From the NCBI GenBank assembly GCA_964016885.1, contig OZ024740.1, positions 18,290,001 to 18,354,000 of the forward strand: DNA of 64,000 bases. The letters are read 5' to 3'. Below the pieces are notes generated by a model that did not search any database, was not told the DNA's origin, and saw only the letters and a list, made by a program, of their open reading frames with translations. This document shows, piece by piece, positions 35,927-56,145 of this stretch. The translations under genes were made by a program, and so were the position numbers. This DNA is from Eledone cirrhosa. Taxonomy: Eukaryota. Position 1 is the first letter of the stretch. The number at the start of each line of letters is the position of its first letter.

Positions 35927-36450
35927 ATGATGGCTGCCCCCTCGTTGTCGAGTATGGCCATTGCACGATATACCATTATTAATAATTATTAATTAATTCC
36001 ATAGTGCAATGGCTGTGCGTGAAGAAATTTTTTAAAGTGAGGAAAGACTGTGCACTGAGCCAATCCCACTCTCTGAGCGACAGTAGCTATAACCTGAAAA
36101 GAAGTAAAGATCAACATCATCAGTAACTACTGAGCCGCAGGTTTTATATCGGAGTTATCCCAGTTTCCTGAGTTGCCTTCTCCTAGAAGAATTCCCTGAC
36201 AAATGCTAGGAGTCCTTCACTCCCAGTGGTTTAACCGCGCGATCGGGTGTCCAACCAGATTATTTCTATGTCCCCGCGCATATACATACATATATATATT
36301 TAAACACTTTTGGATGGCCGTTGACTCTTATGAGTTCTTCTGCCCTTTGTCAGGTTTTGTTTTTTGTCCTGCAGGGTGTCTAAGATCACCCTCCTCACCA
36401 AGTAAACTTGGTGGGGTTGCCGGTTTAGTCGCCGACTACCCGATCATGCG
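35927..36450 (-). mobile_element. Non-coding repeat related to the RTE 5' UTR
   Basis: 36000-36210 is homologous to 59455-59670, immediately upstream of the RTE ORF; other pieces recur at ~36850 and 52996-53048. Confidence 0.6.
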
Positions 36451-50200: not shown

Positions 50201-50573
50201 ATAATAATAAATTTGAAGACTAAAATCCAAAGAGGGCTCGATAAGGATAAATATATATCAAATATATAAGAACCGTAGAGCAAATATTTATTAAAATAAC
50301 AGATTAAGTTTAAGCAAGGAATCGCTGCTTTCACCCTTAACGGGATCTTCTGAAACTAATAAAGTAAATCTGTGAACGCAGAAGTGAATATTTCAAAAAA
50401 CGTTGCAACCGGATGAAGACAGGAAGACGATACTTTGGTTCGTGGAAACGTTCCCTGGCAAAGAACGAAAAAAAAACCCGAAGATAATACGTCATTATTT
50501 GGAGCGAGGAAAACAATTACAGGCAAAGACAAAACCATGTTTATGGTATAAAAAGTCGTAGACTAATATTCTA
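50198..50573 (-). mobile_element. PLE pseudo-LTR segment with a variant HHR-like motif
   Basis: Homologous to 54460-54780 downstream of the PLE ORF and to 12608-12811; abuts (TA)n. Confidence 0.7.
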
Positions 50574-51667
50574 CCAGATAGAAAAATGCGTACAGCAAAA
50601 AAAAGTAATATTGTTGGAATATAAACCTTTAAAAATACAGGACAAGAAACTAAAATAAAACTTTAAAAGAATAGGACAAGAAACTAAGATAAAACTTTAA
50701 AAGAATAGGACAAGAAACTAAGATAAAACTTTAAAGAATTGGACAAGAAATAAAAAATTTTACAATAATATTAGTGGCAAAATTTCTTTGGGTAAAAAAT
50801 CGAGTTCCACATTCATAGGCTCTGGGTTCCACATTCAGAGGTCGTCGTCAGACCGGGGGGATCATTTGATCCTGGTTTGAACACCAATTGGGCCATAACC
50901 ATACCCCTATTTCATCATTCGGCCACACGCCTCATGTGTCATGCATAATGTGAATGGACCCATGGGCCCATGAGCACAGATCTTGAGCAGCAGCGGACGG
51001 TCTTGTCGTCCCGCTCATCCTTGATCTTGACCAACCCGTCCATCTTCTCCTTGCATCTTGTCCTTGAGTTCAAGTCCGGCAGTCCAGATGAATGCGTGCC
51101 ACAGCTTTCTGGTACAGGAAGGGGGAGCAGGAGGACTGGAGGGATGACGGGACAGAGGGAGGGAGGACCGGTGGTTGAGGGAGGTGCCGTAGTCGGTGGT
51201 CAGAGTCGACATCTTGTCCCGGTCGTCTTCTCCATTTTTGTCTGGTGTTGCGGGACCAGAAGTGCATTCTTGGAGGAGACCTGCAGCTGCATCGGCCAAT
51301 TCTTCTTGCAATGGTCATTCTGACGGAGCAGGACTGCTCAGCCAACCAACCCCAACCAGAACCAACCGCTCAGGGGCAACGCACAATGAGAGCATGACAA
51401 TTATTATGCACTAATCAAGAAGATACTGGGGCATAGCAAAGGAAACGAATAAAAAAAATTTGCCACTAATATTATTGTAAAATTTTTTATTTCTTGTCCA
51501 ATTCTTTAAAGTTTTATCTTAGTTTCTTGTCCTATTCTTTTAAAGTTTTATCTTAGTTTCTTGTCCTATTCTTTTAAAGTTTTATTTTAGTTTCTTGTCC
51601 TGTATTTTTAAAGGTTTATATTCCAACAATATTACTTTTTTTTGCTGTAAGCATTTTTCTATCTGGT
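50574..51667. repeat. ~210-bp long inverted repeat with internal ~30-bp subrepeats, enclosing a 670-bp GC-richer spacer
   Basis: 50574-50785 is the near-perfect reverse complement of 51456-51667; AGGACAAGAAACTAAGATAAAACTTTAAA-like subrepeats. Confidence 0.9.
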
Positions 51668-51944
51668 CTACTATTTTTTAAGGCAATGCAAGCAACAACT
51701 ATCTAATAATTAAATGATCATAGTGAATTACTGACAAGTGATTGATTGACATTTTAAAGTTCTTTTGAGTATAATTGCAATCTAGTTGAGGCAACTGGCT
51801 TAATGACAAAGCTAGTAAATCATGAATGCATTTGAGATGATTAGTGCATAATAGTGAATTGGTGAAACTTGTGCATTTCAATGGTGTTACAACAATAGAT
51901 GTAAGTTATATAGTAGTAATACTTTATCATTTTAACTTTTTAGA

Positions 51945-52304
51945 ATGGACAAAAACCCATGCAAAGAAATGACTTTGACTGCAGTGATTCTCTCAAATTT
52001 ACTTACAAAGCAAAACGTGGTCAAATACCTTATCATCTCTGATAAAATGCCCATTGAATCACTGAAAATCGGATGCATGGAATTCCTCATAAAATGCACC
52101 TATGAATCGGAAGCCATCACATATATCAATGGATATAGGGAGTTGTTCACACTGGAAGACCATCACTTCATTTGTGACTTCATCAGTTATCTCCACGATT
52201 ATCTCAGACACCCAATGCCATTGATGAGAGGTGATCCAATGTGTGAGCATGTAACTAATCTTATAGAAGTTGTTATCGACCACCTGGCTTTTAGTGACAT
52301 TTGA
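51945..52304 (+). CDS. Small ORF (119 aa) with a BACK/3-box-like helical segment
   Basis: NLLTKQNVVKYLIISDKMPIESLKIGCMEFL resembles the post-BTB BACK consensus (L..eNv..lL.lAd......Lk..c..fi); preceded by a candidate 43-nt GTAAGT...TTTAG intron (51901-51943). Confidence 0.4.
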   Translation: MDKNPCKEMTLTAVILSNLLTKQNVVKYLIISDKMPIESLKIGCMEFLIKCTYESEAITYINGYRELFTLEDHHFICDFISYLHDYLRHPMPLMRGDPMCEHVTNLIEVVIDHLAFSDI

Positions 52305-52484
52305 CTGATTTGACTGATAATGATGTATTTTTAAAAATTATGTGTACATTCTTGTTACTATTTTAAGGCAATGCAAGCAACAACTATTTAATAAAATTTA
52401 AATTTAAAAATGACCATTGTGCATTACTAGTATGATTACATTTTATTAAGTCACAAAATTAGTCAGTCAGCCATAGAACAAGGA

Positions 52485-53285
52485 TCAGGTGGCAAAAACA
52501 TTGGCAAAAATTTGTGTCAATTTAAGATTTCCAACATTGTTCAAATGAATCATATCTGGTTTGAAGTCAGATTTGTCAAATTTTGACCAATTTTCAATGT
52601 TGTGAAGATTGGGCAAGTTCAATTTTTGAATCATTTCTTTCATGCAGTAATTAAACTTTTCCAAACGAGAATTTCTCTTGCCCAACTCATTTTTATTTTC
52701 AATTACACTTTGTGGACGTGGAATGACACCACTGTAGAAAATGGGTGTACAGTGGTGCTTTTCCGCTATTTTCTGTAGCCTTGCAAAGAGACTCTTGCCC
52801 TGTTTTTCCGGTTTTGTGCCTCGAATGGGCACTTTGTCCTTAATTTACAAATAAATGATTAATAAAAAATACTTGGGCAAAAATTATTGTATTACTTTGC
52901 ACAGCTTTGTAGTGCCAACGGTGCGACGAGGATTCAGATCATTAGAGCCGACATGAACCACCATTACTTTCACAAAAGGACAACAGATAACAACGTTTTT
53001 TGTCCTGCAGGGTGTCCAAGATCACCCTCCTCACCAAGTAAACTTGGTAGGGTATTTTTGTTGGTATGATAAGTAAATACATTTGAATTAATATTTTTAT
53101 ACCTTCTGGTCATTCGATTTCGCCACATTTCTAATTATTGAATCACCCACAATATACTTGAATTGTGGATGATTTTTATTCAAAAGTGCACGGACGACCA
53201 TTAAACAACGGCCATGGAGATTTGTACCATTCCCATTAAATCCTCGCCCCCAAATTGGATTAGGGGTGTCATCGACCAATTGTTG
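52485..53285 (-). pseudogene. Spliced NADAR-like C-terminus + SGNH/GDSL hydrolase fusion gene, disrupted
   Basis: Exon 53285-53103: IWGRGFNGNGTNLHGRCLMVVRALL (NADAR-like) then IVGDSIIRNV (block I). Exon remnant ~52995-52896: VVHVGSND (block III). Phase-0 GT-AG intron 52895-52839. Exon 52838-52485: SGVIPR...DMIHLN (block V). Confidence 0.75.
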
Positions 53286-53329
53286 CTACAAATATTCAAG
53301 AAATGAGCTAGATTCAAATGGTTTTTCCC

Positions 53330-53487
53330 TCAAAAAACGTTTTTTTTTTACCGTTTTTTACTGGTTTTTAATGGTAAAAAAACCGTTTGTAACTTTTTTG
53401 GGAAACTTTTTCAAGTCTGGTAAAAAACGGTTTTTTAACCGTTTTTTACTGGTTTTTTAATGGTAAAAAAACCGTTTGCAACCCTAG
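53330..53487 (-). mobile_element. hAT-like transposon terminus with subterminal AAACGG/AAACCG repeats
   Basis: On - it begins TAGGGTTGCAAACGG, similar to Ac-type TIR starts; internal ~45-bp duplication; no partner end found. Confidence 0.5.
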
Positions 53488-54006
53488 TCACATGTACATA
53501 CAGTCCCCGTGTCACGAAGTTTTGATGCCAGTAGAGGATCATTTTCGAATTTCATTGACAACAGTACCACCATGAGATCAAACTGGATTGATTCCCATTT
53601 GAAATCTCTCTCTTTGCAGAAAGTTGACAATCTATCAAAAAATAGCATTGTAAACTTTAATCAAATATGTATGAAGTGAAATTTTGGTCTGGTTGTTGTC
53701 ATCGGTGTTTCGCAGAGATGCCGGCACGAACAAAGGTGTCAGTGACACAAAGTTGTCCGCTTGAACAAAGGTGTCGGTCCGACAAAGGTGTCAGTCAGAC
53801 AGACAGTCAGACAGTGTCACAGTCGGTGCGACAAAGCGATCGATGCGATTAAAAAAAATTTAACTCAAATGTTTACCTATATTTTAGCAAACTATTGATA
53901 GATTGGTACAAAAAATAGCTTTTATAATAAACATAAATTTTTAACGAAATATTTAAAAAGCATTTTAGCAGTGAAAAGTGAAGTAATGTTTCACACTGAC
54001 GCAAGT

Positions 54007-54131
54007 AGGGCCGTTCAGAAATGACGTAGTCAATTAGGAGGAGGGGATTCAGCGATTTGACTACATTTGACTAACGTAATCACAATCACAAGAGTTCCGC
54101 CGAAAAAAATTCGTCATTTCTGGATGACCCC
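54007..54131. mobile_element. Small MITE
   Basis: Imperfect TIRs GGGCCGTTCAGAAATGACG / CGTCATTTCTGGATGACCC. Confidence 0.55.
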
Positions 54132-54454
54132 GTAGAGAGAGAGAGACTCGTAATTACCCCCCCTTGTTATCTCGGGTCGATTCTCATAGATGCATCAAAT
54201 GCACACAGCGTCACGCTTACTACTGACTCACTTGAACACAAGATTTATCAGCAAACTTTGATTATAAACTTTTTCCCGCTGGACCAAATTTCTAGATTTT
54301 TAAGGCAAAAGATGCGTAATGATCTACTGTTCATGCTCATATAAGTTTTATCTCAGTTAAATAAAGTAGAGCCGCGCTGTACTGTCGTAAACAGACGATT
54401 GACAACGAAAACACGACCACAACAATATTACTAAACGGACTACCGTCCGTTTAG

Positions 54455-56145
54455 GATTAGGTGGTTCGTGGAGACGTTCTCTGGCAATGAACGGAAAAAA
54501 CGAAGATAATACGTCTTCTGCAACGTTTTTCGAAATATTTACTTCTGCGTTCACAGATTTATATTTTTAGTTTCAGAAGATCCCGTTAAGGGTGAAAGCA
54601 GCGATTCTTTGCTTAAACTTTAATCTAATATTTTACTCTCTTAGGTGATTCATAGAGACGTTCTCTGGCAATGAACGAAAAAAAAAGAAAATAAAACGTC
54701 ATATGTGGAGCGTGGAGAACAATTGCACGCAAAGACAAAACCACGCAAATGGTATAACTGAAGTCGTAGACTAAAATTCTAACAAGGAACCCGAATGATT
54801 CTCGGCTTCAGAGTTAAGAATAAAGTAAATAAAATACAGAGGTAATTGAAATTAAATAAATACATACACACAGACGCAAAACTCACGTATACACATAACC
54901 AAAAGCATATGTACCAGAATATATAAAATATACGCCATAACATATACAATCAAATATACGTACGAGAAAGTATACGTACCTTCACAAAACATACAGGTAA
55001 TATATACTTACCTATACAAATAAGTAAAGGTATAAACATAACATATACTTAGCTACCACATCAAGATGTAAAATATCCGCGTATAGATCCGTTAGGGTAT
55101 AATGTGGGGCTGTAATACAGGAAAGTTTTGTGCAATTTATGTTTACAAGCCGAAATTGCCTCAGATTTTTTGTTTAAGATGTGGTCTGTGGCGTAGAGTA
55201 TTTCCAGGGCCTCAGCGGCGCAGAGGTCACATGGTCTTTTATTTCCTTTATACGATCTAGCCCTAGCTAGGATCTCCCAGTGTAACTTATATTGGGTGTG
55301 GTTGTCTTTTAGACTCCAGATATAAGCTGAAAGTGACGTCATATTCCTTCTTAGAGGGTAACGAAAAGAATGGGTATGCATGTAAAGACGCTGCTTGAAT
55401 CTATTGGCGGTTAACCCTATGTAGGCCCTACGGGACGTGAGTGTTTCAACCTTACATTTGTAGACAATGTTACTAGAGAGGCACTTCCCGGATAGGGGCA
55501 ATCAACCCGATTCCTACAATTACAGTTAGTACTAACTACAGGGTTGCACGTGTTCCTACGGCTAGGTAGTTTAGCTAAATTAGAAGCTGTGATGTTAGGA
55601 GTCGTAGAGTAAGAAATTTTAATAGTATTTCTATTAAAAATTTTACTATATTTATGTGTAGGGGGAAAATGCTTCGTAATAAGGGATAGAAAGATCTTAG
55701 CTAATGGCGTGGCCACCTCCATATTATATGGTGGATTATACCATATAATGCGTCGGGATCTATTTCTTCTAAGTCTATTCTCGTACTCTGTATATGCTAC
55801 CTTATCGACAAATCCACTCCGAGCAAGAGCTTCATTGTAATAAGTGGAATGGTCGTTGAAAATATGCTCGTTAGTAGATAGACGGGAAAGCCTCAAAGAA
55901 ACGTTTCTTACCAGGTTCTTGGTTATGCTGGCAGGATGGTTAGAATGCTTACTTATGTAATTAAGCGTATCATTCGGCTTTCTATACGGGTAATACAAGC
56001 CATTCGATAAATTGAGGGTAACGTCGAGGTAATTAACCACCGAGAGGTTGGCCTCAACCTGTATAGAGAGGCTGAAGCCTTTAAAGAAGGCTGTGAGTTC
56101 TTTTCTGAACCTGTTGCAAGCACGTGCGCCGCACTTAGTCAGAGT
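54455..56145 (-). mobile_element. 5'-truncated Naiad-type PLE (RT C-half plus GIY-YIG) with a rearranged pLTR
   Basis: VNYLDVTL, SNHP, WYNPPY, CNCx5CP, IVYK...YIG, CDLC and CKH motifs; frameshift near 55490; duplicated and inverted pLTR pieces at 54460-54780. Confidence 0.88.

Follow-up and report, generated by a model that had tools for sequence, protein, structure and literature searches.

The question raised by this locus, which lies in an analysed stretch of 64,000 nucleotides (hereafter the window), is what kind of gene joins a NADAR domain to an SGNH hydrolase, what carried it, and what purpose it may have served. An initial annotation read it as the dead relic of an intron-containing NADAR–SGNH gene on a mobile element, and our data bear this out; the genomic matches to its NADAR exon fall without exception (7/7) within element copies. 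The proposed carrier, an undescribed element or an endogenous virus, has to be replaced: the ends, the empty sites and a RepHel-encoding parent identify it as a Helitron-like rolling-circle transposon.

Six-frame translation of the minus strand placed the motifs at the annotated sites. Specifically, the fusion of the NADAR C-terminus to SGNH block I within a single exon was confirmed (window 53103-53285, Pfam NADAR E=0.0092, under the cut-off), as were block III, the 57-nt phase-0 intron that follows it and the last exon with its DxxH motif. The replacement of block II by a repeat fragment was equally recovered, as 54 bp of a high-copy repeat. Two boundaries were redrawn. Where a 39-nt intron with a non-canonical acceptor had been postulated, sibling copies have a GT-AG intron, 54-56 nt long, and then a block II exon; in the window copy the acceptor has been overwritten. 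The hAT-like sequence near which the upstream exons had been thought to end lies inside a 216-nt GT-AG intron, a further NADAR exon is found beyond it, and the true break maps to 53671. Table 1 reports the coordinates.

Table 1. Features of the window copy, with positions in the window, strand and basis or remark.
Feature	Position	Strand	Basis or remark
Non-autonomous Helitron-like element, 3,883 bp	50574..54456	-	Internal deletion of the 12,628-bp parent; TC...CTGG ends, preceded by A and followed by T
5' end: TC, 10-bp stem with 4-nt loop (54431-54454), left 13-bp subterminal inverted repeat (54420-54432)	54420..54456	-	
Deletion junction, short microhomology	53671..53672	-	Removed RepHel-UCH and gene exon 1, about 8.8 kb
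Exon 2 (NADAR middle)	53502..53631	-	Sibling exon matches NADAR profile 81-116; splice model
Intron 2, 216 nt, GT-AG; contains the "hAT-like" A/T-rich duplicated sequence	53286..53501	-	
Exon 3: NADAR C-terminus fused to SGNH block I; catalytic Glu changed to Asp in the window copy	53103..53285	-	
Intron 3 remnant (53052-53102) and 54-bp foreign fragment (52998-53051) overwriting the acceptor and block II	52998..53102	-	
Exon 4 remainder (SGNH block III)	52896..52997	-	
Intron 4, 57 nt, phase 0, GT-AG, GC 18%	52839..52895	-	
Exon 5 (SGNH C-terminus, DxxH, stop)	52485..52838	-	Pfam Lipase_GDSL_3 below cut-off; Atlas
119-codon ORF, convergent with the NADAR–SGNH gene; possible second cargo gene	51945..52304	+	
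Internal inverted copy of the 3' end, 225 nt, 97%	51451..51675	.	Other arm 50565-50789
3' end: terminal CTGG; right 13-bp subterminal repeat 30 nt inside the end	50574..50616	-	

The predicted gene consists of five exons with 335 codons (335 aa), the NADAR part being joined to the SGNH part, and its introns 1 to 4, all of the GT-AG type, measure 54-55, 213-217, 54-56 and 57 nt. In a splice test of the NADAR part, every open one- or two-intron GT-AG model was scored against a profile built from YbiA together with 120 relatives, and the same intron pair came out on top in each of three copies, out of 408, 244 and 129 models. Since one and the same pair wins in three copies, the NADAR gene model lies beyond chance. 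In addition, the GC content is 18-29% in the introns versus 38% in the exons. A fifth intron, of 46 nt and inside exon 4, was rejected, because the frame would be lost and the sequence read through aligns with 4C1B. On these comparisons, we consider it very probable that the exon model is correct and that, while the family was multiplying, its source element had an intact gene.

The 54-bp fragment belongs to another high-copy repeat (40 scored matches at 97-98%, among 227 candidates). The block II exon stretch that it displaced is kept in 27 of the 28 copies examined and is absent in the window copy only. The fragment also matches a repeat at window 36359-36417, 16.6 kb off, at 97%, with short matches at both joints; the overwriting looks like templated repair.

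The window copy corresponds to the first 0.8 kb of the parent element fused at the junction to its last 3 kb, and a paralogous empty site of 95% identity indicates that it inserted with no target duplication. A 33-base word taken from the element 5' end has 300 exact matches in the genome, against 0 for a control word, and the 5' stem of the sister family A2 carries a compensatory G-C/C-G change. All 30 sampled 5' ends begin with TC, preceded by A in 29 of them. Among 17 end-to-end element calls, TC follows A at the start in 17/17 and CTRR precedes T at the end in 15/17: CTGG followed by T in 11, CTAG followed by T in 4, with deviations in 2, one 3' end being common to two calls. No 3' hairpin was found, the last 60 nt of the element folding at only -2.7 kcal/mol.

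The inverted 3'-end arm layout recurs in families A2 and B. The two arms (50565-50789 and 51451-51675) are 97-99% alike inside each family and different between families, which suggests that they undergo repeated correction within families. Some element copies stop short, at the inner arm. A parvovirus-like flip-flop of the 3' loop was discarded: of 51 rows, some of which represent the same copy, 29 show one orientation, 1 is inverted and 21 are unclassified. The 119-codon ORF, which has no Pfam family match, is open in most copies and occupies a block of 600 bp bounded by a duplicated 26-bp motif of the element; an attempt to date the cargo from the 45-bp repeat that flanks it was abandoned, the repeat cores being identical. 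A second copy with the identical deletion, in opposite orientation, lies about 12 kb off, just outside the window (G000:C1:18356.4-18359.4 kb), and likely arose by a local jump. The surrounding part of the window (32858-63298) is dense in what we take, from their motifs, to be retrotransposon relics, with frames of RTE/L2-like, Tx1-like, Dong/R4-like and Penelope GIY-YIG type. As for the window copy, it is a dead derivative of an ordinary sort.

A parent element of 12,628 bp, delimited from the stretches around 7 copies, was found on the minus strand at G000:C28:42936072-42948699. It encodes a DUF6570-Rep-PIF1 helicase-UCH peptidase protein in frames broken by several frameshifts (Pfam Helitron_like_N 5.7e-28, DUF6570 6.6e-16, PIF1 9.5e-26, UCH 6e-7), and the NADAR–SGNH gene is located behind RepHel-UCH. 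No capsid, reverse transcriptase or DDE transposase match appeared among the 11 parent frames scanned.

Membership in the Helitron-like superfamily follows from the HUH Rep and PIF1 helicase of the parent and from the lack of a target-site duplication in the window copy and in a nested A2-type copy. As for the variant, the ends carry the 5' TC, the 3' CTRR and the insertion between A and T of HLE1; the short hairpin that HLE1 has some 11 nt from the 3' end is absent, the hairpin of the present element being at the 5' end, and the transposase differs from the HLE1 type, which has no DUF6570 and a Leu in RG-L-P-H. DUF6570 and F/Y-w-R before Rep motif 2 are markers of HLE2 (the Helitron2/Helentron clade), and the 13-bp subterminal inverted repeats fall within the 11-18 nt of that clade. 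The RG-S-P-H position holds Ala in families A, A2 and B, i.e., neither the Ser of HLE2 nor the Leu of HLE1. The canonical HLE2 ends, with insertion between T and T and a 3' stem-loop, are absent, and so is the AP endonuclease that strict Helentrons have fused to RepHel, UCH coming after the helicase.

Proto-Helentrons are described with a 5' TT, a 3' CTAG and A-T sites (Thomas 2014, PMC4067079), and 5' hairpins with asymmetric repeats have been reported as well (Chellapan 2016, PMC5148889). The present families share with proto-Helentrons the HLE2 transposase without endonuclease, the 5' stem-loop, the CTAG end and the A-T site; the 3' terminus is CTGG in family A and CTAG in A2 and B, and the 5' end is TC rather than TT. 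As judged from its sequence, the carrier belongs to the Helitron-like superfamily and to none of the named variants, with a transposase of HLE2 type and ends resembling those of proto-Helentrons.

The region is repeated in the 3.0-Gb genome (40 scored matches among 505 candidates), and most matches begin at SGNH block I. The NADAR C-terminal exon occurs at only 7 places and exon 1 at 5 in the genome search. The search for intact copies that had been envisaged yielded none, all seven NADAR-bearing copies being damaged. The window copy has lost exon 1, has acceptor 3 and block II overwritten by the 54 bp, and carries Asp at the E125 equivalent; its neighbour, at a distance of 15 kb, has the same deletion. 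The C28 parent and the C4 copy have frameshifts, the latter also being without the catalytic Ser, and the C12 copy has a frameshift in block II. The C2 copy retains an open frame and all splice sites, with alterations of the block V Asp and of the Gly after the conserved Trp. A second C28 copy (G000:C28:136.460-136.468 Mb) is interrupted by two nested insertions of related elements. One is derived from family B and has an additional TC start of canonical appearance, the other is a derivative of A2 type, and each sits at an A-T site; the families insert into one another.

No stop or frameshift is common to the copies and, the frame breaks all being unshared, the source element most likely had the whole gene. 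The copies deviate by just 0.6-1.0% from the commonest state of each column, so that the burst of the family was recent. Their private changes (57 non-synonymous and 23 synonymous, omega 0.67) look near-neutral, as expected of dead copies.

Profile searches had been expected to return both NADAR and SGNH; NADAR came out above the Pfam cut-off in the parent, SGNH below it. With introns read through as X, the parent NADAR scores 42.8 bits against a Pfam cut-off of 35.1, the truncated window copy reaching 24.4. Residues are numbered as in the P. nicotianae NADAR (PMC11543638), mapped through YbiA to PDB 8BAU. Equivalents of E43, K50, E125, W89 and W133 are present in the NADAR half: those of E43 and K50 in 5/5 copies with exon 1, that of W133 in 7/7, and that of E125 in 5/7, the two exceptions being Asp (window copy) and Gly (one further copy). 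The pocket is changed, the D130 equivalent being lost, R93 replaced by Gln and K75 by Ser, with four residues fewer before W89. The phosphate-binding positions R79, R93 and D130 read Lys (in an uncertain alignment), Gln and a loss. The predicted fold ranks 8BAU and 2B3W at the top (E 0.018 and 0.094), a partly circular result given that the model was built on a NADAR alignment, and a PDB sequence search with the NADAR read-through gave 0 matches.

On the SGNH side, Pfam values of 0.0035-0.08 stayed under the cut-off in every scan (Lipase_GDSL_3 E=0.0035 for window 52488-52838). Blocks I, II, III and V appear in the order S, G, N, DxxH and at the usual spacing, at positions 9, 28, 56 and 168 of a sibling copy. 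The alignment to another SGNH protein of the genome scored 54, a value reached by 1 of 2000 shuffles, and Lipase_GDSL clusters are found among the Atlas neighbours, at 0.92 (16% of members) and 0.91 (40%). Among five weak PDB matches, the sole SGNH protein was the zebrafish LINE ORF1 esterase 4C1B (E=0.13), aligning over blocks II, III and V; a single-sequence fold model, at pLDDT 43, was too low to be informative. Elsewhere in the genome (G000:C18:42.43 Mb, L141:1414-2814, minus strand) a 466-codon intronless frame combines a Cys cluster, a coiled coil and SGNH in a LINE-ORF1-like manner; there is no long frame in the 1.4 kb behind it, and it is possibly a domesticated ORF1.

Two related families bear on whether the element needed this gene. 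In the sister family A2, which differs from A by a RepHel dS of 0.30-0.52 (omega 0.13-0.17; UCH omega 0.24-0.51), the 2.2-kb cargo is absent in both copies examined. In family B, whose Rep is 56% identical, NADAR–SGNH is absent in 3/3 copies examined. The existence of A2 and B without it indicates that the gene was optional and dispensable for transposition. Six further family-A copies with RepHel were inspected, and 5/6 hold differing remnants of the cargo region; by its distribution, the gene appears to have belonged to the family-A source element. Family B is a 12.8-kb relative with many intact 2230-codon RepHel-UCH frames in copies about 99% alike (G000:C1:200.487-200.500 Mb, C5:5.367-5.379 Mb, C3:255.629-255.642 Mb). 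It has TC, a long 5' hairpin, CTAG followed by T and a 220-bp internal inverted arm, as in the family A layout, and is possibly still active.

Relatives of the cargo outside these elements were sought in several ways. A phmmer search of the last exon in 1.84 billion representatives gave 1 match, to a repetitive protein judged spurious; word-based protein searches, which are weak tests, gave 0/541 and 0/249 candidates. No SGNH family stood among the Pfam labels of the best 120 of 236 long YbiA relatives, metagenome and viral scans returned short, weak matches only, and two weak genomic matches (C4:176.67 Mb and C1:360.42 Mb) were set aside as noise-like. Four contig runs from one study contained no splice joints, at a depth of about 30 on the NADAR exons and 600-1500 on SGNH; as this depth tracks copy number, the run set says nothing on expression. 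A genome search for a guanine ADP-ribosyltransferase of the Pierisin/Scabin family found no match, the control being silent too.

What the gene may have done can be framed by known biochemistry. RepHel transfers one strand through a circular intermediate (PMC6431247). NADARs reverse guanine ADP-ribosylation, which DarT1 places on single-stranded DNA and pierisins and the shellfish CARP-1 on double-stranded DNA or nucleosides (PMC11543638); orphan NADARs of phages act in counter-defence (PMC11825919), and NADARs have been noted in molluscs and other animals, their roles being open (PMC11125620). The NADAR–SGNH gene on the Helitron-like transposon would have served it as an optional helper enzyme. 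While RepHel moved one strand via a circular intermediate, single-stranded element DNA would be exposed, and the NADAR half would strip ADP-ribose off its bases. The SGNH half would act as an acyl or lipid esterase, on acyl groups or membranes, as the LINE ORF1 esterase does.

To the overall explanation, a broken copy of a Helitron-borne gene that was likely an optional helper, we give an even chance, and the narrower claim that the gene aided the element instead of merely riding along appears to us just as finely balanced. A helping role would be favoured by the conservation of the main catalytic residues and by the recurrence of both domains as accessories of other mobile elements; A2 and B multiplying without the gene, the altered NADAR pocket and an SGNH half under the Pfam cut-off would argue against it. 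By analogy, the substrate might be the ADP-ribosylated DNA of the rolling-circle intermediate, a proposal that we make tentatively and hold to be rather unlikely, and a counter-defence role would be plausible at a similarly low probability. Distinctly unlikely, in our judgement, is that an animal proto-Helentron-like lineage evolved its own spliced NADAR-esterase gene against host ADP-ribosylation of bases in the single-stranded intermediate. If true, it would be a eukaryotic counterpart of the phage AdfN, and base ADP-ribosylation would be an unrecognised animal defence against DNA transposons.

A passenger origin, in which family A recently acquired, from a different mobile element or organism, a complete gene that stayed intact through recency and had no use in transposition, is a real possibility that falls short of even. 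Its absence from A2 and B suits such an origin, as does the junction: A2 is colinear with A until about 15 bp before the exon-1 acceptor, which on sequence would fit gain in A and loss in A2 alike. Between their 3' inverted arms, A, A2 and B each have a loop of different DNA that looks captured, the intron 2 sequence is found nowhere else in the genome (7/7 matches being element copies), and gene capture by Helentrons is on record (PMC4067079). Against capture, exon searches of the genome return element copies only and thus no host donor gene. The captures described in PMC4067079 are broken fragments, whereas the gene is complete here, none of its eight splice sites missing, and the compact introns together with two domains typical of mobile elements suggest a long residence in some element.

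The changed equivalents of D130, R93 and K75 also invite the improbable reading that the gene was a remodelled accessory. Its NADAR half would bind or trim another nucleotide or ADP-ribose metabolite (compare YbiA and riboflavin intermediates), and the esterase would be the main activity, for instance in membrane targeting. Stand-alone NADARs may have other physiological targets (PMC11125620, PMC11543638), the LINE esterase ZfL2-1 is active and binds phospholipids (PMC3905857), and texim SGNH genes travel on fish Helitrons with no NADAR reported in PMC4021074; on the other side, the kept equivalents of E43, K50 and E125 correspond to the three residues whose catalytic role was tested in PMC11543638. 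We attach hardly any probability to an endogenous virus, a LINE ORF1 relic, a hAT cargo or an ordinary host gene. The SGNH half does resemble LINE ORF1 esterases, and NADAR in oyster Tx1 ORF1s (PMC12477816) leaves room for the coding sequence to descend remotely from a LINE. As present carriers, all four are refuted by the RepHel parent, the Helitron ends and the empty sites. The long parent ORFs are RepHel-UCH, the hAT-like sequence is intronic, and the outcome named beforehand as contrary, a single-copy host gene or an intronless LINE ORF1, was not encountered: four GT-AG introns interrupt the gene.

The optional helper on a Helitron-like element can be compared with known systems. The closest carriers are the Phytophthora infestans proto-Helentron and the HLE2-reverse elements FoHeli3-5, which, as described, have a DUF6570 HLE2-type transposase without AP endonuclease, a 5' stem-loop before a short left inverted repeat, a CTAG-type 3' end and A-T insertion without duplication (PMC4067079, PMC11417382, PMC5148889). 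The present families differ from them in the animal host, the TC instead of TT start, the UCH tail, the 220-bp internal inverted 3'-end copy and a NADAR–SGNH cargo in place of SET/TIR. HELIANO (PMC11417382) counts 20 captured domains including UCH, uses DUF6570 as an HLE2 marker and reports the proto-Helentron from Phytophthora only. Its HLE2 subgroups c/d resemble our elements in domain content, having DUF6570 and UCH (C19) with RepHel. A word search of its text and supplement gave 0 occurrences of NADAR, PF08719 and SGNH, a count that may miss the term Lipase_GDSL.

A spliced SGNH gene on a Helitron has a precedent in texim (PMC4021074; via PMC12273014), likewise an optional multi-exon hydrolase gene related to CR1 esterases; by its description, to which the comparison is confined, texim differs in having 15 exons, demonstrated testis expression and no reported NADAR. 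YbiA-type NADARs on eukaryotic transposons are described in Ectocarpus Gypsy Pol and oyster Tx1 ORF1 (PMC12477816), there as intronless parts of Pol or ORF1 in retrotransposons, here as a separate spliced gene, fused to SGNH, on a DNA element. The NADARs of the YbiA subfamily (8BAU, 2B3W) and the phage AdfN (PMC11543638, PMC11825919) share the predicted fold, the E43/K50/E125/W133 equivalents and a selfish-replicon carrier; the altered phosphate-binding pocket, the SGNH fusion and the lack of a known opposing transferase in this genome set our gene apart. The literature searched contained no NADAR on a Helitron and no NADAR–SGNH fusion, with an entry in Repbase, Dfam, subscription journals, the 2015 Helitron review or de Souza and Aravind 2012 being possible. 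By its predicted domains, the cargo combines known parts in a new way; every copy seen is dead, and the function of the gene is a prediction only.

In conclusion, the three families combine an HLE2-type transposase with TC/CTRR ends and A-T sites, a layout that HELIANO has from Phytophthora only (PMC11417382), and annotation tools in which the type of end is tied to the transposase clade would assign families A, A2 and B wrongly. In addition, a Helitron-borne NADAR beside a deubiquitinase-like tail offers a test case for DNA-base ADP-ribosylation in the conflict between transposons and their animal hosts, and from the gene one might suspect that a transposon in an animal can shield its own DNA much like some phages.
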